The translations under genes and the position numbers were made by a program. Under the pieces are notes generated by a model that had not been told where the DNA came from, did no database searches, and saw nothing but the letters and a program-made list of their open reading frames with translations. A stretch of DNA of 63,969 nt, the filler included, from an uncultured Methanoregulaceae archaeon (lineage in GTDB: Archaea > Halobacteriota > Methanomicrobia > Methanomicrobiales > Methanospirillaceae), in NCBI GenBank assembly GCA_964530035.1. It is 6 parts of 6 records of this genome, joined end to end, with 100 filler letters (N's around TTAATTAATTAA, not from the genome) between each part and the next. Parts side by side here need not be neighbours in the genome. Positions count along the whole stretch, not along the records: positions 23,893 to 35,589 come from CAZGXZ010000071.1; 5 more parts are not named here. One strand, given 5' to 3'. Positions within the stretch are counted from its first letter, which is position 1. Every line of letters starts with the position of its first letter. Positions 23,893-35,870 of the stretch are shown piece by piece.

Positions 23893-25969
23893 CGTCACGA
23901 GCACCGGCATGGGCTCCGAGGTAGGGCATATCGCCCACATGCTCACGGAGCAGAAGGAGGAGAAGACTCCGCTCACGAAACAGATTGACCGCGTCACCCT
24001 GTTCATTATCGGCATGGCGGTGCTCGCCTTCGTAAGCATTGTTGCCATCGGCCTCTCGCAGGGAGAGTCATTCACCACGCTCTTCAATATCGGCATTTCG
24101 CTTGCCATCGGCTCGATACCTGACGCCCTGCCGGCGGTCGTCGTCGCCATCCTTGCCATGGGGACGGTCGCTATGGCCAGCAAGAATGCCATCATCAAGA
24201 GCCTGCCGGCGGCCGAGACGCTCGGGTCGACCTCGGCTATCAACTCGGACAAAACCGGGACCCTCACCATGAACCAGATGACCGTCCGGGTCATCGAGAC
24301 AGTGAATCACCGGTACAGCGTTTCGGGAGAAGGCTACAGCTTCGAGGGCAGGATCCAGCGGACGGAGGGCGATGCCGGGGAGGACCTGGACCACGTCCTC
24401 TTTCCCTCCGCCCTCTGCATTGACACCGATATCAGGGACGGGCAGGTGATCGGGGACCCGACGGAGGGGGCCCTCTATGTCCTCGCCGAGAAAGGCGGCG
24501 TGAACGTGCAGGAGTTCAGGAGGAACAACCCGAGAATTGCCAGCATCCCCTTCGACTCGGACTACAAGTTCATGGCGACCTTTCATGCCATGAAGGGGAT
24601 GGGAGGAAAGGAGGTCGTCCGGGCGTACATCAAGGGGGCCCCCGATGTCATCCTCTCACGGGCCACCCACGGCCTGATGCCGGACGGCTCCACCCGGCTC
24701 CTGACCGGGGAGGACCGGGAAAAGGTCCTCGCGGAAAACGAAAACATCGCCAGCTCGGGGCTCAGGGTCCTTGCATTTGCTGAAAAGGAACTCGACCCGG
24801 TGTCCTTTGACCCGAAGGCCGACCTCATGCCCCTCATGGAAGGCCTCGTCATGACCGCGTTCGTCGGCGAGGTGGACCCCCCGCGTGCCGAGGCGAAGGA
24901 CGCCATTGCAAAGGCGAAAAAGGCCGGGATCCAGGTCAGGATGATCACCGGAGACCACGCGGTCACGGCCGGGGCCATCGGCCGCGAACTCGGGATCGAG
25001 GGGCGTGCCATCACCGGGGCCGAGTTTGCCGCCATGAGCAACGAGGAAGCTGCACGGGAAATCGACGGAATCGGGGTCATTGCCCGTGTCTCTCCCGAGC
25101 ACAAGGTGAAGCTCGTCAACGTGCTCCGGGACAAGGGGAATATCGTCGCAATGACCGGCGACGGGGTGAACGACGCCCCGGCGCTGAAGGCGGCGGACAT
25201 CGGGATTGCCATGGGCATCACGGGAACGGACGTTGCAAAGGGTGCTGCCAAGATGATCCTCACCGATGACAACTTCGCGACCATTGTCACCGCCATCGAG
25301 GAGGGCAGGAAGATCTATGACAACCTCCAGAAGTTCCTCCGCATCCAGATCGCGAACCTGTTCATGTTCATCCTTGCGTTCCTCGGTTCTTCGGCATTCG
25401 CCATCGCCGGGACCGCCCTGTTCTCACCGGCGCAGGTCCTCTTCATCCACATGCTCATCGTAGCCCCGATCGGGGCGATGCTCGGGATGGACACGGCCTC
25501 ACCGGGGATCATGGAACGAAAGCCCAGGAGACACGACGAGTCAATCATCTCGAATGGTATGTATATCCGGCTGTTCCTCGCCGGGGCGTTCATGGCAGCG
25601 TCCGTTCTCCTCCTCTACCGCATCGGGGAGACTTCGTATGGTTCCTGGCAGACCGGCCAGACGATGGCGCTCATCTCTGTCACACTCATGAACATCTTCG
25701 TGACCCTGAACCTCAGGTTCCCGTCAGATACTGCGTTCAGTCGTTCGACGTTTTCCAACCCGAACCTTCTGTATGCCTATCTCTGGGTCCTGGCGAGCAC
25801 CCTGCTCATGACCGAGACAAGGCTGTTCCAGTACTTTTTCGGGACGACGTCCCTTACCGCAGACCAGTGGCTCATCTGTCTTGTCCCGGGAGTGGTCCTG
25901 CTCTTCGTCGGTGAGACGTTCAAGCTGTACCTGAGGCACAAGGAACGGCGGTCGGTTGAAGCGGTGTAA
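23893..25969 (+). CDS. P-type cation-transporting ATPase, P2A (Ca2+/Mn2+-type), 5' truncated
   Basis: DKTGTLT, GDPTEGAL, KGAPD, MITGD, TGDGVNDAPALK; TM4 reads IPDALP instead of the usual PEGL. Confidence 0.93.
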
Positions 25970-25975
25970 AAAAAC

Positions 25976-26688
25976 GGCTCCGTTGAAATCCTCCCGGTCT
26001 TCATTTTTATCCACTCCATTATGAGAGGTCTCCTTCAGCGGCGATTCCGATCAGGAGGTTTCCTATGGGAATGCAAAAAATGGCTACATAATAAGGATAT
26101 TTGAAGGGGAATTTTCATGGTTCGGGTGCGAACTTCAGTTCATTTGCATTTTAACAGAGTCGATTTTTTGGCTTTTACTTTTCACGAGCAGAGGATCAAA
26201 GGGATGAGAACCGGGGGGCTGCCACCCCCCAAACCCCCTGCATACGATAGCCATGGCAAGCCGTTGGCGATTTCCTGACAGCTGTTATTCGGGTTTATTT
26301 TCTCTCACTTTATCTGACCTTGGCGAGGTTTTTACCCTCTTAAAAGGCCGTGAGACCGCCGCCGGGGCGCCCGTCGGGGGCAGCGGGGTATCTTTTCGGG
26401 GGTGTGGGGGTATGCCCCCACTGAAGGGGTCGTGATTATAGAATAGCGGGAAAGATGTGCCTTCGGGTATTCGGGAAGGTCTGGAAGAATTCAAAAACGC
26501 CTGAAAAATTTCAGATCCCGTTTCTTCAATCATGCAGATTACATGCTAATTATGTCAGGGAAGGAGGAATTATTCAGAAAAATGAGATTTTTAGTTCTGT
26601 TAAAATCTTCTCTCTCTTCACTTTTATTTATCCTATTATGAGAGACCTACATCCGCTGCAATTCCAATCATAGGATCTCAACAGAGTA
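25976..26688. mobile_element. non-coding composite repeat element, copy A (186-bp TIR module + 431-bp core + 96-bp TIR module)
   Basis: Reverse-complement homologue of 31409-32131; module ends GGCTCCGTTGAAA / TTTTAACAGAGTC and AGTTCTGTTAAAA / TCTCAACAGAGTA. Confidence 0.75.
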
Positions 26689-26953
26689 AAAAACAATAAA
26701 AATCATTTTAGACCCCTGTATTCCTTCTTTTAAAAGGATGATGACCGGGTTGGGCATAAGGGATCCTGATTAAGAAACGACATTCATTTCACGGGATTGC
26801 GGTGACAGGGACAGGAAAAGGCCGTGTTTCCAGTCATTGAAAGGCAAGTCCGGGAGTCCTGGAATTCGTATCATAGAATTCCCTGTCAAAAAGAAGGTGT
26901 GCTCATTGGTTGCCGGGTGGGTTCGGACCTGATGAATCCCAGCTCCTTTCCGG

Positions 26954-27496
26954 TCATCCCAGCCGTATCTTTTCAGCAGCCTTTGCTCCTTCTGCCAGTT
27001 GTGCACCGAGATATACCAGCTCAAGGGGAGAAATAAAGCCGTTGGCCATGACGATACCCTTCTGCCTGATGGCTATTTCCTTCAGTTTTTTGGCCCAGAG
27101 ATGTTCGACGAGCATGATGCCTGCCGCGGTACCATTGGGCATGTCCTTGGCGATCGTCAGGAGTTCCTTTTTACTCAGCCCGAAGTCCTTCATGGCGGCC
27201 ATCTGGGCACCGACTTCAGCCCCAGCTGCTGCACCTTCTTTTCCTCCGGCCCCAAGGCCTATGAGGGCACCGACAACAGCACCAAGCTTGATCCGCTCCT
27301 CTTCAGGGAGCTGGGTGATTTTTGCAATGGCAACGTTTCCCTTTTCATCCTTGATTATGCCCGAGAGCCCGATGACCCTGATGAGCCCTTCCTGGCTCAG
27401 CGAGAACAGTTCTTTTAAAAGATCGCCTTTCAGGTTGTCGATCTCCGGGAATCCGATTGCTATCAGCTGGATTGGACCAAATTCTACCATTTTCAT
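26954..27496 (-). CDS. DUF1269/DUF6325-like protein with glycine-zipper segment
   Basis: GPIQLIAIGF, GLIRVI, GAVVGALIGLGAGG, LVEHLWA; related to 32510-32956. Confidence 0.75.
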   Translation of the reverse strand: MKMVEFGPIQLIAIGFPEIDNLKGDLLKELFSLSQEGLIRVIGLSGIIKDEKGNVAIAKITQLPEEERIKLGAVVGALIGLGAGGKEGAAAGAEVGAQMAAMKDFGLSKKELLTIAKDMPNGTAAGIMLVEHLWAKKLKEIAIRQKGIVMANGFISPLELVYLGAQLAEGAKAAEKIRLG

Positions 27497-28079
27497 GTCT
27501 CCAATATTTCAGGATACTGTCTCATTGATTTCATCATATATAAAAGGAGTAACTGCCTGGAGGGACCACGGGGTGCATCTATAAAGTAGTCTTATGTTTT
27601 GACGGTTTGTTTCAGTTTATTTTTAAAAAATGGTGTTCATCCAAGTTATTTCCCCTGCAGGGGATACCTGTGTCAATCAGTTTGTTAAAGCCTGTCCCAT
27701 CAGCATACATAAGAAATTTTTTTCAGGTGAGGCTTACATTTTCCAGATACGAGACGAACACCTGGTTAAGCACTTTAGGTTGACGAGCAGATGTCTGCGG
27801 GGCCGTTCATTTTTCCATCCATGTCATTGACCCGATGCGAAAAATAATCACATTGGTCGCTGAGTGAATGCAGAACTACCTGGAATCCTGGTATCGGGGT
27901 AGTATCTGTGGAACCGTGGGTGACCCCCGGTTGACCTGGTTGGAATGGCCGATACCCGAACAAATAACGAGGTCACATTGCGTTGCCCGAATACTAACGT
28001 TCTTTATCGCAAGAAAGCCCGTACCACAGACAGGTTAAGAATATAACTGAATACCGTACAGTCTCATAGTGTTTCCATT

Positions 28080-28658
28080 ATGACTGAAGCGGAGACTCCT
28101 TCAATGGGCATCACGCCGGGCATCCCGGTGTTCCCCTGGTGGCTGATCCTTATCCAGGGTATTATCACGCTTATCCTTGGGATCATGTTCCTCACGTATC
28201 CGTACGGGACCCTCCTCGTGCTCGTCACGTTCCTTGGTGCCTACTGGTTCGTCAGCGGCCTCATGGGGCTTATCAGCCTCGCGTATGACAAGTCGAACCT
28301 CGCCTGGAAGGTCGTCTTCGGGGTCCTCGGGATCATCGCAGGTATTGCCATCCTCGCATACCCGCTCTATAGTGCCTTCTTCGTCCCGTTCATGCTCCTC
28401 ATCTTCGTCGGGGTATGGGGCCTGATGATGGGTTTCATGAGCCTGTTCGCGGCATTCAAGGGCGGCGGCTGGGGTGCCGGCATTATGGGGCTCCTCCTGA
28501 TCATCTTCGGGTGCATCCTCCTTGCAAATCCCTACGTGGGTACACTGGTGCTGCCATTCGTGCTCGGGGTATTCGGGATCATCGGCGGGATCATCGCCAT
28601 CATCGGGTCCATCTACCTGAAGGGGCACCCGATGCAGATCCCCGAGCCTTCCCCCTGA
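28080..28658 (+). CDS. HdeD/DUF308 family membrane protein
   Basis: WWLILIQGII..ILG...P repeat architecture, about 6 TM helices. Confidence 0.85.
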   Translation: MTEAETPSMGITPGIPVFPWWLILIQGIITLILGIMFLTYPYGTLLVLVTFLGAYWFVSGLMGLISLAYDKSNLAWKVVFGVLGIIAGIAILAYPLYSAFFVPFMLLIFVGVWGLMMGFMSLFAAFKGGGWGAGIMGLLLIIFGCILLANPYVGTLVLPFVLGVFGIIGGIIAIIGSIYLKGHPMQIPEPSP

Positions 28659-28961
28659 TACTTTTTTCATTCATGCAAACAAGACCGGCAGCACCGGTCT
28701 TACGGCTCACACGTATTAAATAGGTCCCGCCCGATAGGATCGATCACAATACCCTGCTTCAGGTGGTTCTCATCGCGGTGATTCGTTTCATTTCAGGACG
28801 AATTGTCCATTCCCTTGTTGCCCCTTTTTTCAAAGGGATGAACATCTTCATTTCCGTGATTGTCCTTTGTACTCATGATGCTTTCACCAGGCAGCATGCC
28901 CTGAAGGTCGGGCTGGGAGCCGGTTCATGACCTCCGGAGGCAGATACAGGCAGGAAATACC

Positions 28962-30245
28962 ATGAGTCCCTCGACTTCGGAAGAGATGCCGGAAAAGGTG
29001 GGCCATCCAAAAATATGGCAGATAGTCCTGATCGCAACAGTCGCAATCGGTTTCACCACGATCTTCCTCGAGGGGTATCTTGTGGTAAATGGTATCATCT
29101 GGGAAAACGGATTTGTGAAAACCAACCGGTGGATTATTCCGGTTATCGTCGTTTTCTTTTCGTTCCTTGTCGGGGTCTGCCTGAAATACTTCAAAGCTCC
29201 CGATGTCATCCATGGGAACCTGACTGATTCGATGAAGGGGGAAGAGGCGCACTCGGATTACCGGATCTTTCCGGGGACGCTCCTGTCGGCGTTCTTCTCC
29301 CTGGTATCAGGGGTGAGCGTCGGTCCCGAGGGCCCCATCGCCATTCTCGTCATGGAGATCTCGGCCTGGTTCCGGGAGAAGCTGAAAATCATCAACGAGG
29401 TCAGCATCGGGTTCGACGTGGCGGCACTCGCCTCGGCCTATAACGGGATTATTGGAAACCCGCTGTTTTCGGCAGTGATAGCAACAGAGTTCAATGTCGG
29501 CAATAAGAACGCCCTGAAATTCATTGCCTGGAACCTCCTTGCCGGCGTGATCGGGTTTCTTCTTTTCAAGCTCTTTGGTTTCGCCTCCTTTGCGAGCTTC
29601 ATGGAGTTCCCGCCCATCGGGACGGTTACTCCGATGCACATCCTCTATGCGGTCATCCTCGGTGTCCTCGGTGCCGGCGTCGCCGTCGCCATCGGGGCCG
29701 TCATGCGGGGTGTGGGACAGTTCACTGAAAAGGTGTTTCACGGACGTGTCATGGAAAGGGTACTGTTTGCAGGTGTAATCATGGGTATCGTCTGCACCTT
29801 CATCCCGGAGCTCCTCTTTTCCGGGGAGTCGTCGATCCATGGCATTCTGAAGGAGCCAGCCATGTACGGGGCAGCATTCCTGCTCCTCATGGCTGTCCTG
29901 AAAATCGTGTTCCTTGCGCTGTCTTTCAAGAGCGGTTTTCTGGGTGGCCCGATATTCCCGACAATATTTGCCTGCACCATGATATCACTCGCGTTGAGCC
30001 TGGTCTTTCCCGGAATCCCGCTTGGTATCCTGGTGTTATGCCTTGAGGTGGCGGTCATAACCTGTGCTCTCGGGATACCCCTTACCGCCATCCTCCTCGT
30101 AGGTGTCATCGGGAATACGGACCCCCTTATGCTCTCGCTCCTCGTCATCTCTTCAACGGTCGCCCTTGTCCTCGGGATGGCGGTGCGGGAAATGAAAGAA
30201 AGTCCTCCTGAAGGTAACTCGGATACACCCGGTCAGGAGTCGTGA
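28962..30245 (+). CDS. ClC chloride channel/transporter-like protein (short YfeO-like form, no CBS domains)
   Basis: GVSVGPEGP, LLFSGE and GFLGGPIFP motifs; about 11 TM helices. Confidence 0.8.
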   Translation: MSPSTSEEMPEKVGHPKIWQIVLIATVAIGFTTIFLEGYLVVNGIIWENGFVKTNRWIIPVIVVFFSFLVGVCLKYFKAPDVIHGNLTDSMKGEEAHSDYRIFPGTLLSAFFSLVSGVSVGPEGPIAILVMEISAWFREKLKIINEVSIGFDVAALASAYNGIIGNPLFSAVIATEFNVGNKNALKFIAWNLLAGVIGFLLFKLFGFASFASFMEFPPIGTVTPMHILYAVILGVLGAGVAVAIGAVMRGVGQFTEKVFHGRVMERVLFAGVIMGIVCTFIPELLFSGESSIHGILKEPAMYGAAFLLLMAVLKIVFLALSFKSGFLGGPIFPTIFACTMISLALSLVFPGIPLGILVLCLEVAVITCALGIPLTAILLVGVIGNTDPLMLSLLVISSTVALVLGMAVREMKESPPEGNSDTPGQES

Positions 30246-30472
30246 GGCTACTCCCGGATTATTCCGGGCTGTTTCCTTCATAATCTCAGCTGTTGTGAAC
30301 ATAACGGGATGTCCGCCGGACCGATGAAATCGTATCTCTTTCAATCCCGGCGTAGTGCGAAAGCCCTCCGGACCCTCTGAAATGACCTTCTTTCTTATGG
30401 TGAATTTCCCTTCCCGCCTGGCTCATCCCTGAATCATCAGGCTATATCTAGTCTCACGGCCAATGAAGAAGC

Positions 30473-31393
30473 ATGGAAATCGCACTGGCCGTCCTTACAA
30501 TAGCAGGGCTGGTGCTGTTCGAGACTATAACGAGCATTGATAACGCCATTATCAATGCGGAGGTCCTCAACACGATGGGGGCCCGCATGAGGAGGTGGTT
30601 TCTCACCTGGGGCATCCTCATCGCGGTTTTTTGTATCCGGGGTGCGCTGCCGTGGCTCATCGTCTGGTTTTCAACACCATCCCTCGGGCCGGTCGGCGCC
30701 CTGACCGCGACATTTTCAAGCGACCCCTCGGTCATCGCCGCGATCGAGGCATCGACGCCAATCCTCCTCATCGGCGGGGGGACATTCCTGGTATTCCTGT
30801 TCTTCAACTGGATATTCCTTGAGACGAAGTACTACGGCCTCCGTGTCGAGCGGTACATCGCCCGGAAGGGTGTCTGGTTCTATGCCGTCGTATCGGTCCT
30901 CCTCGCACTCATCGTCTGGTTCTCTCTCCAGAAGGACCCGATGATGGCGTTTGCCGCTGTTATGGGCTCGACCGCCTTTTTTATCGTCCACGGTTTCAGG
31001 CAGAACGCAGAAGAACAGGAACGGAAGATGCTCGGCAGCGAGATGTCCGACATGTCGAAGCTGTTCTACCTTGAGGTCATCGACGCCACGTTCTCAATTG
31101 ACAGCGTTATCGGTGCCTTTGCATTCACCATGTCGGTGCCCCTGATCATCATCGGGAGCGGGATTGGAGCGGTTGTTGTCCGCCAGATCACCGTGTCGAA
31201 CACGAAGACCGTCAAGAAATACCATTACCTGAAAAATGGGGCGATGTACTCGATATTATTTCTCGGCTCCATCATGATAATGGACAGTTTCGGCTTCCAT
31301 ATCCCTCCGTGGGTCTCTCCGGTGATCACCTTCGCCGTCGTCGGATACTTCTTCTGGAAGTCAGCACGGGAGATCAAGGCAGAAGAGAACTGA
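30473..31393 (+). CDS. DUF475 (TerC-like) integral membrane protein
   Basis: SIDNAIINA, WFLTWGILIAVF, YLEVIDATFSIDSVIGAFA, YLKNGAMYSI. Confidence 0.88.
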   Translation: MEIALAVLTIAGLVLFETITSIDNAIINAEVLNTMGARMRRWFLTWGILIAVFCIRGALPWLIVWFSTPSLGPVGALTATFSSDPSVIAAIEASTPILLIGGGTFLVFLFFNWIFLETKYYGLRVERYIARKGVWFYAVVSVLLALIVWFSLQKDPMMAFAAVMGSTAFFIVHGFRQNAEEQERKMLGSEMSDMSKLFYLEVIDATFSIDSVIGAFAFTMSVPLIIIGSGIGAVVVRQITVSNTKTVKKYHYLKNGAMYSILFLGSIMIMDSFGFHIPPWVSPVITFAVVGYFFWKSAREIKAEEN

Positions 31394-31408
31394 TTTTTTC
31401 TGTAAAAC

Positions 31409-32131
31409 GGCATTGTTGAAACATTAAGATCGGAATTGCAACTGATGGAGATCTCTCATAATGGGGTGAATAAAAATGAAGATGAGGATGATTTCAACAT
31501 AGTCAAAAAATCTCAATTTTAACGAATAATTCTTTCTTGCCGGACATAATTGTCAGGTAATCTGCATGATTGAAGAAACGGGATCTGAAATTTTTCGAGA
31601 CCTTTCTGAATGTTTCAAATCTTGCCGAATACCCGTAGTCACCTTTCACGATATCCGATAAACATCAGCCCTACAGTGGGGGTGTGCCCCCACACCCCCG
31701 AAAAGATACACCGCCGCCCCCGAAGGGTGCCCCGGCGGCGGTCTCATGGCCATTCATTGATATTTCGATTTGAAAAAAATCGCTGAAGACATAAAAAAAT
31801 ACGATAGCCATAGCATAAACAACCCTGATAAGGCAATCGACAACGGCTTGCCATGGTTATCGTATGCAGGGGGTTTGGGGGGCGGCTGCCCCTCAGTTCG
31901 AATCCCTATAATCCTCTGCCTGTTAGAGGTTAAAACCAAAAAATCGGCTCTGTTGAAACACACCTGAACAGGAGTTCACACCTAACCATGAAAATCCCCC
32001 TACAAAATCTCCATATTATGAGGCCATTTCTAGAATTTTCGTTGGAAATCCTATCATCGGAATTGCAACTGATGGAGATCTCCCATAATGGGGTGAATAA
32101 AAATGAGGATGTGGAGGATTTCAACAAAGTT
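31409..32131. mobile_element. non-coding composite repeat element, copy B (96-bp TIR module + 441-bp core + 186-bp TIR module)
   Basis: Module ends GGCATTGTTGAAA / TTTCAACATAGTC and GGCTCTGTTGAAA / TTTCAACAAAGTT; the two modules share a ~70-bp direct repeat (31430-31499 vs 32057-32126). Confidence 0.75.
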
Positions 32132-32247
32132 AGTAAACCTCTTTTTCAGGCAAATCCCCGTCGCGTTCCTCTTTTTAACAGCATTCAAGGATAGTCCGGG
32201 GGGCAATCACTTCTCCGTGGTTCCCTGAAGCGGAAAAAAAGAGGTCC

Positions 32248-32508
32248 TTAAAGCCCCAGGAGTTTCTTCTTGGCTGCGGTGAACTCCTCGTCGGAAAGGA
32301 CCCCCGAGGAGTGAAGACCGGCAAGTTTCTGCAGTTCGGCGGTAACATTGGCTTCAGCGGGAGTGGCGCCGGCCTTGGCCTGCTCTTGCTGCTGGATCGC
32401 TGCCTTGGCACCTTCCTGCCTGTTTGCCTCGGCCTGGGCTGCGGCCTGTTCTGCATGCATCTGGCCCATCTTCCGCCCTGCCGCAAACATCAAAAGTCGT
32501 CCTCTCAT
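32248..32508 (-). CDS. SHOCT domain protein
   Basis: C-terminal ELQKLAGLHSSGVLSDEEFTAAKKKLL; Gln/Ala-rich linker; GGAG RBS before ATG 32508. Confidence 0.85.
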   Translation of the reverse strand: MRGRLLMFAAGRKMGQMHAEQAAAQAEANRQEGAKAAIQQQEQAKAGATPAEANVTAELQKLAGLHSSGVLSDEEFTAAKKKLLGL

Positions 32509-32509
32509 G

Positions 32510-32956
32510 TCAATACTCTCCTTTAGCCATGAGCTGCTCAGCCCTGATAATGGTTTCCGGGGGAATCCTGCCCATATCAACCAATTCGGCTTCTGCATTG
32601 AGCATTGCCTGTTTCAAACGGATAGCCCAGATATTCTCGAAGAGCAGGAGCCCTGCCGAGCAGTTGTTCGGAAGTGATTCGGCAAACGCCTCGATATCCG
32701 CCTCGCTGAACCATTCCTTGGCATTTTTTGCCAGTTCCCGGTAGGCTGCACCAGCCTCTCCATCCAGGTTCTTCGCCTCGATCGTAAGGATCTTTCCCTG
32801 CTCGTCCTTGATGATCATGACCATGTCGATAACCCTGATGATGCCTTTCTTCTCAAGATCGACCAGTTCCGGGGCGATCTTACCGCTGAACTTGTTCCCC
32901 GGAAACCTGATGATCAGGTAGTCCACCGGGCCGAGGATCGGATGATGTTCCGTCAT
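32510..32956 (-). CDS. DUF6325 family protein
   Basis: LGPVDYLIIRFPGNKFSGKIAPEL..L..KGIIRVID, LLFENIWA, GRIP; paired with a SHOCT gene. Confidence 0.8.
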   Translation of the reverse strand: MTEHHPILGPVDYLIIRFPGNKFSGKIAPELVDLEKKGIIRVIDMVMIIKDEQGKILTIEAKNLDGEAGAAYRELAKNAKEWFSEADIEAFAESLPNNCSAGLLLFENIWAIRLKQAMLNAEAELVDMGRIPPETIIRAEQLMAKGEY

Positions 32957-33290
32957 GTACGTCTCCCCTTACTTGAAAGAGTAATTGGTGATTATTATCG
33001 GGGAGTATATATGTTTAGCCTATCCCGGTTGTTTTTCCCTTGAATCCGGTGAAAGGCGGTATTTCTTTTCTCTCCTGAATATCGGCCGGTTTTCACCTGT
33101 ACAGGTTATCCTGGGTGAGGCATAAGGGAAGTGCCGTCCTGATTCGGACATCCTTAAAATGGATACAGAATATTTCGTTGAAGATGGCCGGCAAAAGTAC
33201 CCGGGAAAGCTATTCTGCCCTGGTCAGGGTACGTGAAAAAAGGATTGTCTCCCCTGAGGGAGGCCCGGCCTTCAGGGCCTGAAAATCTTT

Positions 33291-33644
33291 TTACTTCCCC
33301 TGGCTCGCAAGTTCTTTTTCGAGGGCATCGAGACGGTCCTCGAGTCTCTGGAGCGTGTTGTCGATCTCCTTTTCAAAGACGCGGAGGTCGGCGGCGTCTG
33401 ACTCGTTTCCTGCCAGGTTGTCCTCGTGTTCCCCGAGATACCGCTTCACCGCGGGAGTTCTCAGAAGACCCCATTCCGTTACGAGCGACTCGAACCTGCG
33501 GTCGAGGTATTCATCGACACGGCTCTCGACCGGGTTGGCGAGGGAAATGCCTGCCCTTGACGTCCCCTTGAAGAAATAATAGATGACAAAGGCGATGACG
33601 ATGATGATAATGATGAATATAAGGAAATACTCGAGTTCGGTCAT
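33291..33644 (-). CDS. membrane-anchored coiled-coil protein, 'YxD..EWxL' paralog 3
   Basis: N-terminal TM; RVDEYLDRRFESLVTEWGL; C-terminal heptads; ATGA overlap with the upstream gene. Confidence 0.8.
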   Translation of the reverse strand: MTELEYFLIFIIIIIVIAFVIYYFFKGTSRAGISLANPVESRVDEYLDRRFESLVTEWGLLRTPAVKRYLGEHEDNLAGNESDAADLRVFEKEIDNTLQRLEDRLDALEKELASQGK

Positions 33645-33859
33645 TTCAGGAGCGCCTCCACCCGCTTTGCCCGTGTCTCAAGCGATTCCAGGCGGCCAAG
33701 GGCGCTTCTCTCAACGCCGTCGAGCCTGGCGATCTCCGCACAGAGCGTGTCGATCCTCGCCGAATAGTCCCTGACCTCGGCTTTCGTGGCTAGCTGCCAC
33801 TCGTCGATCAGGAGCTTCATCCTCCGGTCGATGTAGGTGTTGAGGTAATTGTCGATCAT
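33641..33859 (-). CDS. small coiled-coil protein, 'YxD..EWxL' paralog 2
   Basis: YLNTYIDRRMKLLIDEWQLAT; heptads; ATGA overlaps on both sides. Confidence 0.8.
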   Translation of the reverse strand: MIDNYLNTYIDRRMKLLIDEWQLATKAEVRDYSARIDTLCAEIARLDGVERSALGRLESLETRAKRVEALLK

Positions 33860-34161
33860 TTCCTGGCACCTTCCAGTCGTGTCAGGGTAGTGTCGAGACG
33901 TGCGACCCGGTCGGCTATCTCGATTTTTCCCCGGCTGAGACGCTGGATCTCGCTTGTCACCCGGTTCAGCCTCCGGTCGAGCTCGACGAGGTCATCGTCC
34001 CTGAGGAGCCCCCACTCCTCGATGATCAACGGGAAGTTCTGGTCAAAGTAACGGTCAAGCTTGCGGTCAAGTGTCGGTATCTTTTCCTGCAGGTACCCGC
34101 CGACGTCTGGGAGGTTCTTCCAGAACGGTTCCCCTGCGGTTCCTTCCTGGTATTCTGACAT
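33856..34161 (-). CDS. small coiled-coil protein, 'YxD..EWxL' paralog 1
   Basis: KLDRYFDQNFPLIIEEWGLL; heptads; TAATG overlap with the upstream gene. Confidence 0.8.
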   Translation of the reverse strand: MSEYQEGTAGEPFWKNLPDVGGYLQEKIPTLDRKLDRYFDQNFPLIIEEWGLLRDDDLVELDRRLNRVTSEIQRLSRGKIEIADRVARLDTTLTRLEGARK

Positions 34162-34547
34162 TATTTCACCTTCTTTTCCTCAAGGTCAATCTTCAGGAGC
34201 ATCCGGTCGAGCTTTGCCTGCTGGACGAGGTTCTCGAGCTTTCTCAGTCGTGCCTCGACCATTTTCTGCTTGGCATAGATGTCCAGTTCAAGGGTATCGT
34301 TCGCCTCCTCGACCGCACGGAGCTCGGCAATCCTGTCCACCGAGAGTTTCGTGAACGGGTGGACCTTCGCCTGGGCGGAGATATCCTTCTGGAGGATCGA
34401 GAGTTTTTGTTTTTCAAGTTCGATCTCGGCATTCTTCGTCCCGGCGCTGGTATGCCGGATTGCCCAGACGATCACCAGGATGAGGATGATCGCGATGAGG
34501 ACGATGAACCCGATGATGACGAGGTCATTTCCGACCGTGATCTCCAT
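34161..34547 (-). CDS. single-pass membrane protein with long coiled coil
   Basis: TM near residues 9-30 then heptad repeats; start is ATG 34547 or TTG 34553. Confidence 0.8.
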   Translation of the reverse strand: MEITVGNDLVIIGFIVLIAIILILVIVWAIRHTSAGTKNAEIELEKQKLSILQKDISAQAKVHPFTKLSVDRIAELRAVEEANDTLELDIYAKQKMVEARLRKLENLVQQAKLDRMLLKIDLEEKKVK

Positions 34548-34549
34548 GC

Positions 34550-35314
34550 TCAAGCCCCTATGACCTTCACAGCCTCAGAAAGCCCGGGTTCAGAGCCAAT
34601 GAGGAACACCGTGTCACCGCCGAGGATGGCCAGGGTTGGCTGCTGGATCAGGACATCGTCGCCCCGTCTCACTGCTGCGACCGTGACCCCTGCGGGAAGC
34701 TTGATCCCGGAGAGCATCCTGACGGGAGCCCCGGAGGCAACGATCACTGATTTTACTGATCCTTCGTTCTCCTTCAGGATCTTCGCGAGTTGGGCGGCAT
34801 CCCCGGGAGTGAGTTTCTTTTTTGCGCTCTCAATCAGGCTGGTCACCTGTTCGGGGACGGGAATGGAACCAGCAGCTCCCGAGACCTGCGAGACCGCACC
34901 CGATACCGCCGCAGCACCGGTCATGAGGCCTTCGTCGATCTTTTTAACACCGGGGTCGATGGCTGCCCCTATCTTTGCACCCATCGCGTTGATTCCCGAG
35001 CCGACTGTCTTTGCCACGTCGTCGGTAGATTTCTTCAGCCCCTCGGAAATCCCGGCCTTTCTTCTGACGGCAAGGCGTGCCCCCTCACCAGCCCCCAGCT
35101 GGTCAAGGTCCGCCTTGTCAAGCCGTATGTACCCCTTCTCGACGTGCTGGTCCGCGAAAACGGTCACCACAAGAGGCTTCTCCTGGCCAGGGAGGGATAT
35201 CTCGATAGCTTCACCCTCCTTCACCGGGATGAGGTCGATGTCCCCGGTATTCAGGCGTGCCCTCCCTCGGCTTGGAAGTGCCCGTACCTGAGCGATTAGC
35301 TCCATATCAGCCAT
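34550..35314 (-). CDS. CDC48-N-like double-psi barrel / amphipathic linker / RCK_C (TrkA-C) fusion protein
   Basis: RGRARLN..I.....EGEAIEI...GYIRLD..DL..LGAGEGARLAVRR matches the CDC48_N pattern; C-terminal LPAGVTVAAVRRGDDVLI.QP...ILGGDTVFLIG matches RCK_C. Confidence 0.72.
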   Translation of the reverse strand: MADMELIAQVRALPSRGRARLNTGDIDLIPVKEGEAIEISLPGQEKPLVVTVFADQHVEKGYIRLDKADLDQLGAGEGARLAVRRKAGISEGLKKSTDDVAKTVGSGINAMGAKIGAAIDPGVKKIDEGLMTGAAAVSGAVSQVSGAAGSIPVPEQVTSLIESAKKKLTPGDAAQLAKILKENEGSVKSVIVASGAPVRMLSGIKLPAGVTVAAVRRGDDVLIQQPTLAILGGDTVFLIGSEPGLSEAVKVIGA

Positions 35315-35513
35315 ATGAAGAACTATCCCTCGATCATTAATAGGACTACCGGTCATGTCCCGGAATGCCTGTCATAAAATTTTATCTTAATTTTAGGATA
35401 AAAAGTAGTAAAAAGAAATCACCTGACATGATGCGATCTTATGGTGATTTCCGCCGGGAACATGTCACTGGCGCGGTAAAAAAAAGATTTCCGAAAATAC
35501 CGGAAAAATGCTC

Positions 35514-35589
35514 TTAGAGTATCCCGAAGAACACGACCCCGGACATGGTGACCATGATGACCAGGATGACGGCCCCGATCTTGGCCTGG
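35514..35589 (-). CDS. C-terminal fragment of a membrane protein (truncated by linker)
   Basis: Reads QAKIGAVILVIMVTMSGVVFFGIL* with coding-like codon usage. Confidence 0.5.
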
Positions 35590-35689: not shown

Positions 35690-35870
35690 TCCTCGTCATC
35701 CATGAGCAGGATACTGCCCGTTACCTGGTCTTCCTGAGACATGTCCGCGAGATAGGGTGGATACAGGACGTGAATTGAAAGCGGCAGATATCTGGTATCG
35801 GGAGTGCCCCTGCCGGGTCCTGTGTATAGATCAATATAACCATCATGTTTTCTCACAATAAAAAATGCCC
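35690..35870 (-). pseudogene. remnant of hybrid histidine kinase (end of HATPase plus start of receiver domain)
   Basis: IVRKHDGYIDLYTGPGRGT...YLP followed by GSILLMDDE; no intact upstream kinase frame before gyrA. Confidence 0.55.

Follow-up and report, generated by a model that had tools for sequence, protein, structure and literature searches.

Gene content of the locus

The stretch of DNA analysed here (the window; 63,969 nucleotides, joined from six parts of the genome of an uncultured Methanoregulaceae archaeon, GCA_964530035.1) carries five open reading frames (ORFs) on the minus strand at positions 33291..35314. These genes, A to E, represent a real and old archaeal membrane coiled-coil system, apparently undescribed in the literature searched. 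Gene A (35314-34550) encodes a protein of 254 amino acids, comprising a double-psi beta-barrel (DPBB) of the Cdc48/VAT N-terminal type, an 11-mer amphipathic linker and an RCK_C domain; the gene may begin further upstream, at 35356, and the homologues favour 35314. Gene B (34547-34161) encodes 128 amino acids, or 130 when read from a TTG codon at 34553. It is followed by genes C (34161-33856, 101 amino acids), D (33859-33641, 72 amino acids) and E (33644-33291, 117 amino acids), whose products are YxD..EWxL paralogues: C is soluble with a C-terminal coiled coil, D is a soluble minimal module and E is anchored in the membrane. The successive junctions from A to E are TTGA or a 2-bp gap, then TAATG, ATGA and ATGA. 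The first-pass annotation of the window had described five minus-strand genes with overlapping or abutting stop and start codons and a motif common to the last three, and the ORFs, their junctions and the motifs quoted for C, D and E are as it stated.

Paralogy and topology of the B, C, D and E proteins

The module of C, D and E consists of an amphipathic helix bearing the YxD..EWxL motif, a short turn and a coiled coil. Pairwise comparison of the three families by hhalign gave probabilities of 98.4, 96.8 and 98.4%, as compared to 39.6% for B. These profile comparisons indicate that C, D and E are paralogues, as had been proposed, and that B stands outside their family.

All 35 B and all 35 E proteins have a predicted transmembrane (TM) helix, which is absent from each of the 35 C and 35 D proteins; the earlier statements that the system is tethered to the membrane and that only the last paralogue has an anchor both agree with this topology. 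The TM helix of B (minus strand, ~34467-34523) is followed by two cytoplasmic helices with a Pro-Phe turn between them, and that of E lies at ~33570-33626 on the same strand. The 15 residues before the TM helix hold no Lys or Arg; after it, the mean is 3.9 in B and 2.9 in E. By the positive-inside rule, this charge bias predicts an N-out, coil-in orientation and shows B and E as single-pass proteins with one N-terminal TM helix each and cytoplasmic coils.

Pfam and NCBIfam gave no family name for B, C, D or E, and the ESM Atlas likewise offered none for B or E. Those homologues of E that have a name are found in Methanoregulaceae, Methanoregula and Methanospirillum, in line with a position of the genome within Methanomicrobiales, and all named homologues are hypothetical proteins or bear stray automatic labels. 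Searches of PDB sequences with D and B as queries returned generic coils only; CHMP3 stood among such coils in the matches of D, at an E-value of 0.27 or worse. E matched PspB on the TM helix only (E 0.006), the Atlas rows being below the naming bar, and no Pfam or NCBIfam row for PspA_IM30 or Snf7 was obtained for A to E at E<=0.1. The Pfam/NCBIfam, PDB sequence and ESM Atlas searches thus matched no known complex, in agreement with the first-pass annotation, which had recognised no described system of this composition.

Domain architecture of the A protein

Residues 1-85 of A (35060..35314, minus strand) form a DPBB modelled by AlphaFold at a predicted local distance difference test score (pLDDT) >90. 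Its best Foldseek matches are the p97/VAT N-domain barrels, with a root-mean-square deviation (rmsd) of 1.3-2.0 Å over 82-90 residues; the match to Pfam CDC48_N (E 5e-6) is below the cut-off. A lacks both the second Cdc48 N-subdomain and an ATPase. In the model, a long helix after the barrel enters a linker of low confidence (residues 95-152), which leads to the RCK_C domain.

The linker (residues ~89-167; 34814..35050, minus strand) is rich in Ala, Lys and Gly and has an amphipathic period of 11 residues per 3 turns. In each of the 17 homologues the region after the barrel displays a hydrophobic period of 96-100 degrees (p<=0.02 in comparison with 300 shuffles per sequence), and the linker lengths are often ~11 residues apart (35, 46, 57, 68). 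The 11/3 helix is a signature of the lipid-surface helices of synuclein, perilipin, apolipoprotein and late embryogenesis abundant (LEA) proteins. The A profile gave weak matches to apolipoproteins (E 1e-4 to 4e-4).

The C-terminal RCK_C domain (34559..34720, minus strand) matches TrkA_C (PF02080) at E 3.6e-8 and 33.6 bits, above the cut-off of 27. TrkA_N (RCK_N) has no match in A, and the TrkA models score 14-22 bits against cut-offs of 289-384. The CDC48-N/RCK_C fusion of the first-pass annotation is present in the host protein as barrel and RCK_C; only 6 of 17 A homologues carry the RCK_C part, and the A proteins of the Thermoplasmatota-like loci described below lack it. RCK_C is a lineage-specific extra of A, and ligand sensing through it, which the annotation had offered for the system at large, is not a general feature.

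Since diadenylate-cyclase domains were found in all five genomes searched, RCK_C could read cyclic di-AMP (c-di-AMP) in the subset that bears it. The host genome has three genes with such a domain (on its contigs C64, C184 and C207); three other genomes with RCK_C have two each, and a genome whose A lacks RCK_C has one. A role in regulating an ion channel or transporter, in which RCK_C might for instance sense c-di-AMP, draws on these cyclases, on the resemblance of the domain to TrkA and on a CLC-type channel gene 3 kb from the operon in the host genome. As RCK_C is restricted to that minority of A proteins and no channel gene is a conserved neighbour, such regulation is very improbable, and the channel gating first suggested finds no conserved partner.

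Conservation of the operon in Methanomicrobiales

All 34 loci of relatives retain the gene order ABCDE, in answer to the test for a conserved five-gene order that the first-pass annotation had put forward; 33 of these loci read ABCDEF, with a sixth gene, F, and one reads ABCDE. Of 41 related genomes, 16 contain C, and a locus search with C alone as the query confirmed 0 of 600 stretches. Strong matches to D, F and B coincide in a single set of 33 genomes among a sample of 401 of the phylum, namely the host genome, 29 of the 34 in its own family and 3 of the 9 in a second family of that order; weaker matches were obtained for D in 8 genomes, for F in 17 and for B in 1 (with stops). In 32 relatives F lies within ~1 kb of D, according to the listed coordinates. 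Kin genomes are not independent in these co-occurrence counts. Within one family, 5 of 34 genomes (completeness 95-99%) lack the genes jointly, which shows loss as a block. The operon is far more than a chance arrangement.

Beyond A to F, no neighbour family is common to more than 6 of the 24 long loci, so the unit is self-contained. One relative (G019) has three operon copies on contigs C131, C181 and C233 (L034-L036); two A genes are seen, both with RCK_C, and F is not beside the two copies with E. An ABC1/UbiB kinase gene is located ~3 kb from one operon copy (L032:12563-14212) and is not common to the other loci.

Gene F and its zinc finger

F encodes a zinc-finger protein of ~100 amino acids whose gene overlaps the end of E in the relatives. 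All 14 F proteins examined are above the cut-off of Pfam Prok-RING_2 (PF14445), with a best E-value of 2.6e-38. In the host genome, F is found apart from the operon (G000:C104:7962-8129; L103:5840-6148) and scores 86 bits against PF14445; it is flanked there by unrelated genes, including one for a DUF6438 protein, whereas it follows E in 33 of the 34 loci of relatives. Weak PF14445 matches occur in 17 of the 401 genomes of the phylum. One of these genomes, without the operon, encodes a stand-alone 70-amino-acid zinc finger that passes the Prok-RING_2 cut-off (L104:4630-4842). A metagenome record holds a 196-amino-acid E-F read-through or fusion (P0089) with a degenerate finger, which may be a frameshift artefact.

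The ligand pattern C-x2-C-x11-C-x2-C-x4-C-x2-C-x7-C-x2-C is present in 13 of 14 F proteins, the remaining one having Asp at ligand 5. With eight Cys and no His ligand, F does not show the RING pattern (C-x1-3-H in the middle pair). The first 14 fold matches of the F model (pLDDT 84) are FYVE and Rab-effector fingers, the best with a Z of 5.7 (all <8) and an rmsd of 2.0 Å over 51 residues; a family missing from the fold lists, such as RING or phasin, is not excluded by that absence. The ligand spacing and modelled fold modestly suggest that F is FYVE-like and not RING. Pfam Prok-RING_2 may represent a FYVE-like adaptor of the operon system and not a ubiquitin ligase.

The family name of F, 'Prokaryotic RING finger family 2', matched by 14 of 14 proteins, and the likeness of the A barrel to p97/VAT N-domains could be taken to describe a membrane protein quality control resembling endoplasmic-reticulum-associated degradation or ubiquitin-like tagging, with F as a RING E3, A as a Cdc48 adaptor and anchors in the membrane. 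The Cys pattern of F is of FYVE type, FYVE and Rab-effector fingers rank first by fold, and A has neither the ATPase nor the second N-subdomain. Furthermore, inspection by eye of the neighbour families common to at least 4 of the 24 long loci revealed no AAA ATPase, E1, E2, ubiquitin-like or JAB protein, and F was not found beside the genes of either of the other two lineages treated below, the Methanobacteriales and the Thermoplasmatota-like loci. A RING/Cdc48 degradation role is not supported, and quality control of this kind is improbable.

Related genes in other archaeal lineages

The D profile, run against 1.84 billion representatives, matched 162 proteins. Among the 150 matches listed, ~35 long proteins match on the coil only and the distant short relatives fall into three groups. 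The first is an E-like TM protein of Methanobacteriales, to which E compares at 99.1%. From 109 genomic loci of this order 80 were kept, and a B homologue lies directly upstream of the E-like gene in 77 of the 80. Neighbours recognised from the sequences include methionine aminopeptidase (59/80) and frhADGB (44-46/80). B is present in 197 of 201 Methanobacteriota genomes, is mru_2057 in Methanobrevibacter ruminantium and is the most widely conserved gene of the operon; extra copies in Methanobacteriota are duplicated as a B-E pair. Methanobacteriota keep a two-gene core of B and one anchored E-like gene, and this pair is the oldest core of the system. A link to rod shape was set aside, as the presence of B in nearly all of these genomes leaves little room for it. 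An absorption of the 11-mer tail of A by the Methanobacteriales E-like protein was likewise rejected: 78 such proteins were found and 65 parsed, and 11 of 64 testable linkers were significant. Just upstream of one extra B-E pair lies an Hsp20 gene (L205:4356-5153) whose product has a long apolipoprotein/LEA-like N-terminal repeat.

Groups 2 and 3 are encoded by adjacent genes, and their named relatives are mostly Thermoplasmatota. The set comprises 11 metagenomic loci, of which two pairs look like duplicates. The order in 7 of the 11 is a short A, a soluble paralogue, an anchored paralogue and a soluble paralogue; three of the remaining loci are cut by contig ends and one (L204) is without the upstream genes. 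In each of the two three-paralogue operons a single member is anchored, and its position differs between them. In a tree of 60 rows and 76 columns every paralogue group forms one side of a branch; the links across lineages are weak, E joining the last Thermoplasmatota paralogue at 91/80 and C joining the anchored one at 87/77.

A tandem PRC-barrel gene (PF05239, above the cut-off) follows the operon in 8 of the 11 Thermoplasmatota-like loci, and the other three end soon after it. PRC-barrel genes also occur in 9 of the 80 Methanobacteriales loci, all of them extra copies away from the usual site, and in none of the 34 Methanomicrobiales loci. This association bears on a membrane anchor or organiser of FtsZ-based division, in which a bitopic coiled-coil pair would be linked to SepF and FtsZ through CdpB-like PRC-barrel adaptors. 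The near-universal B of the walled Methanobacteriota would suit such a role, and PRC barrels bind SepF in Haloferax (PMC11188069). However, the Methanomicrobiales loci lack PRC genes altogether, neither ftsZ nor sepF is among the conserved neighbours, and the operon is patchy within one family (29/34), unlike core division genes. Moreover, adjacency is cheap where Methanobacteriales have up to 15 PRC genes (bioRxiv 10.1101/2023.03.28.534520). A division organiser is possible but unlikely.

Relationship to phasins

The first-pass annotation had likened the coiled coils to those of UbiK/BMFP and phasins. Weak D matches in 8 of the 401 genomes of the phylum led to five fetched genes (L098-L102), which are stand-alone phasin-family (PF05597) genes of methanogens of another family of the phylum, without the operon; two of the five proteins were scanned and both are above the PF05597 cut-off. 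D compares with this set at an hhalign probability of 92% over 47 columns, the Methanobacteriales protein at 66% and the control B at 22%. Against Pfam Phasin PF05597, D reaches E 0.027 and 14.9 bits as compared to a cut-off of 28.8, a distant homologue reaches E 6e-6, and the best score of a distant homologue is 26.8 bits, also below the cut-off. The weak matches all fall on model positions ~74-125, in the C-terminal part.

A coil-free motif model of 34 columns, built from 125 of 131 motif pieces, gave one clear score among six phasin-family proteins (11.0 bits, reached by 0 of 200 shuffles). Four others scored 1.4-2.4 bits, which 2-5 of 200 shuffles reach, one gave no score, and 20 coil controls scored 2.0 bits at most. 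The phasin resemblance is real, though remote: it shows in the profile comparison of D, and by the motif alone it stands clear of the controls in one protein of six. On the UbiK side, no Pfam row for BMFP was obtained for C, D or E at E<=0.1, and an ABC1/UbiB kinase is not among the common neighbours. A remote relationship of the modules to phasins is plausible from these alignments, and membership of the phasin family is not supported.

Coating of a storage granule or lipid droplet, in the manner of phasin or perilipin, could be read from the repeated C-terminal PF05597 matches, the D comparison and the 11-mer tail of A. Five of five carrier genomes, however, gave no PF05597 match and no class III polyhydroxyalkanoate (PHA) synthase, the latter sought with TIGR01836 only, for which the control was positive in 1 of 14. 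The membrane-spanning helices of B and E suit a bilayer rather than a granule surface, and the motif-only test was weak. The granule coating first proposed is not supported, and a granule or droplet coat is improbable.

Surroundings of the operon and transcription signals

The operon lies on contig CAZGXZ010000071.1 (window 23893-35589) and starts ~270 bp from the contig end, so the DNA gyrase genes beyond window position 35690 do not adjoin it. Located ~200 bp upstream of A, on its strand, is the 3' end of a membrane-protein gene (35515-35589) that is truncated by the contig end. On the other side, positions 26954-32956 hold genes for DUF1269/DUF6325, DUF308 (HdeD-like), a CLC-type channel, DUF475/TerC, SHOCT and DUF6325 proteins. 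This region looks like a stress or membrane island, and the gene set is not kept beside the operon in relatives. A scan for promoters and terminators gave 3 and 2 sites as compared to 1.1 and 2.9 expected, and three RNA libraries gave only read-sized pieces of ~150-260 bases at a depth of ~2; among the 14 sequencing runs listed, not one contained half of the sequence words.

Proposed role of the system

No enzyme is found among the products of A to F. The best reading of the operon, by analogy with its modules, is a non-enzymatic scaffold at the cytoplasmic face of the membrane. Because the genes are coupled and co-occur, their products probably form one membrane-attached hetero-oligomeric complex. 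In it, C, D and E would assemble into a hetero-oligomer, probably trimeric and anchored through E, with B as the obligate membrane partner of the oligomer; the E-like protein of Methanobacteriota, encoded by a single such gene, would form a homo-oligomer. The amphipathic helices would rest on the lipid surface, bracing or bending the membrane. The DPBB of A, the FYVE-like F, the PRC barrel and RCK_C would be exchangeable lineage-specific adaptors that target or regulate the scaffold. The most likely job of the complex, at odds that fall only a little short of probable, is to stabilise or shape strained or curved membrane, such as at sites of envelope stress, poles or the septum; the Hsp20 gene before one extra B-E pair is counted in its favour. 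Three elements of this scheme, namely the 11-mer tail of A, gene F and the B/E core, had been overlooked in the first-pass annotation.

Several observations weigh against the scaffold reading. The system was not found in 368 of the 401 Halobacteriota genomes searched, so many methanogens can do without it. None of five Methanobacteriota genomes searched yielded A and, as the linker test of the E-like proteins also indicates (11/64), a lipid-binding tail is not universal. B adjoins other genes in 2 of the 11 Thermoplasmatota-like loci. F is separated from the operon in the host genome, and its fold match is modest, with nothing under E 0.001 in Foldseek. The contacts between subunits and with lipid are proposed ones, the proposed function rests on analogies of modules, and the coiled-coil matches are generic.

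The scaffold and division readings can be combined. An old archaeal scaffold, made of the B/E pair and remote phasin-like oligomerisation modules, might shape the septum or poles and join FtsZ-SepF through PRC barrels, which is on balance unlikely. If true, it would supply walled methanogens with a membrane-integral component so far missing from their division or morphogenesis apparatus; in its Methanomicrobiales version, a curvature-binding helix like that of synuclein would stand together with a prokaryotic FYVE-like finger.

Novelty and significance

No description of the operon was found in the literature searched, which extended to neither the supplements of PMC2812497 nor those of bioRxiv 10.1101/2023.03.28.534520. 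It is not described in the portions seen of PMC11188069, PMC5898192, PMC9635834 and PMC1852104, nor listed among the PRC neighbourhoods in the portion seen of bioRxiv 10.1101/2023.03.28.534520. The same search found no literature on Prok-RING_2/PF14445 or on mru2056/2057, the source paper of Prok-RING_2 being outside its scope. With respect to significance, nearly all Methanobacteriota, a phylum that includes the main gut and rumen methanogens, have the B/E core. The Methanobacteriota core, the six-gene operon of Methanomicrobiales and the PRC-barrel operon of the Thermoplasmatota-like loci together turn anonymous genes into one testable system. Its distribution and composition are surprising for archaeal cell biology and offer a direct target in Methanobacteriales. 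If the system is a membrane-shaping or division scaffold, it would bear on the question of which membrane proteins arrange cell division and shape in archaea, and would provide a methanogen-specific membrane target. The source of Prok-RING_2 is reportedly Burroughs et al. (2011), which may mention the neighbourhood of F.

Comparison with known systems

Except for F, which belongs to PF14445 and whose strong matches coincide with the operon, the proteins are members of none of the families tested. MK0749-0751 could not be connected to the operon genes; PMC1852104 and PMC9635834 place these genes in Methanopyri/Methanobacteria, with a probable part in pseudomurein synthesis. Like the phasins PhaF/PhaI and UbiK/BMFP-type coiled coils, the C/D/E modules join an amphipathic helix to a coiled coil through a short L-x-T turn. 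They differ in lacking the N-terminal phasin segment of PF05597, in their family-specific YxD..EWxL motif and in forming three paralogues, one with a TM helix.

F differs from RING E3 ligases in ligand spacing and fold, and no ubiquitin-system neighbours were seen. FYVE domains that bind phosphatidylinositol 3-phosphate have a basic RRHHC motif, which F lacks. A shares the double-psi barrel of the Cdc48/p97/VAT N-domain at the rmsd given above, but corresponds to its first subdomain only, with no ATPase and with an amphipathic repeat tail behind it. The RCK_C of the host A (and of the few homologues that have it) is shared with Trk/Ktr gating subunits, whereas the operon has no RCK_N and no common transporter neighbour.

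As for archaeal CdpB, PRC-barrel genes accompany the operon in two lineages and not in the Methanomicrobiales loci; as for PspA/ESCRT-III, A to E include no PspA_IM30 or Snf7 subunit. PspB/PspC, FtsL/FtsB and YtxG(FacZ)/YtxH are operon-encoded bitopic coiled-coil pairs that act in envelope stress or division, and YtxH-type proteins have LEA-like repeats. These pairs are analogues, no homology of theirs to the operon proteins having been detected, and the coils of FtsL/FtsB face outward whereas those of B and E are predicted to face inward. By this analogy, the mode of action of the operon proteins is most likely similar to that of the bacterial membrane-anchored coiled-coil scaffolds.

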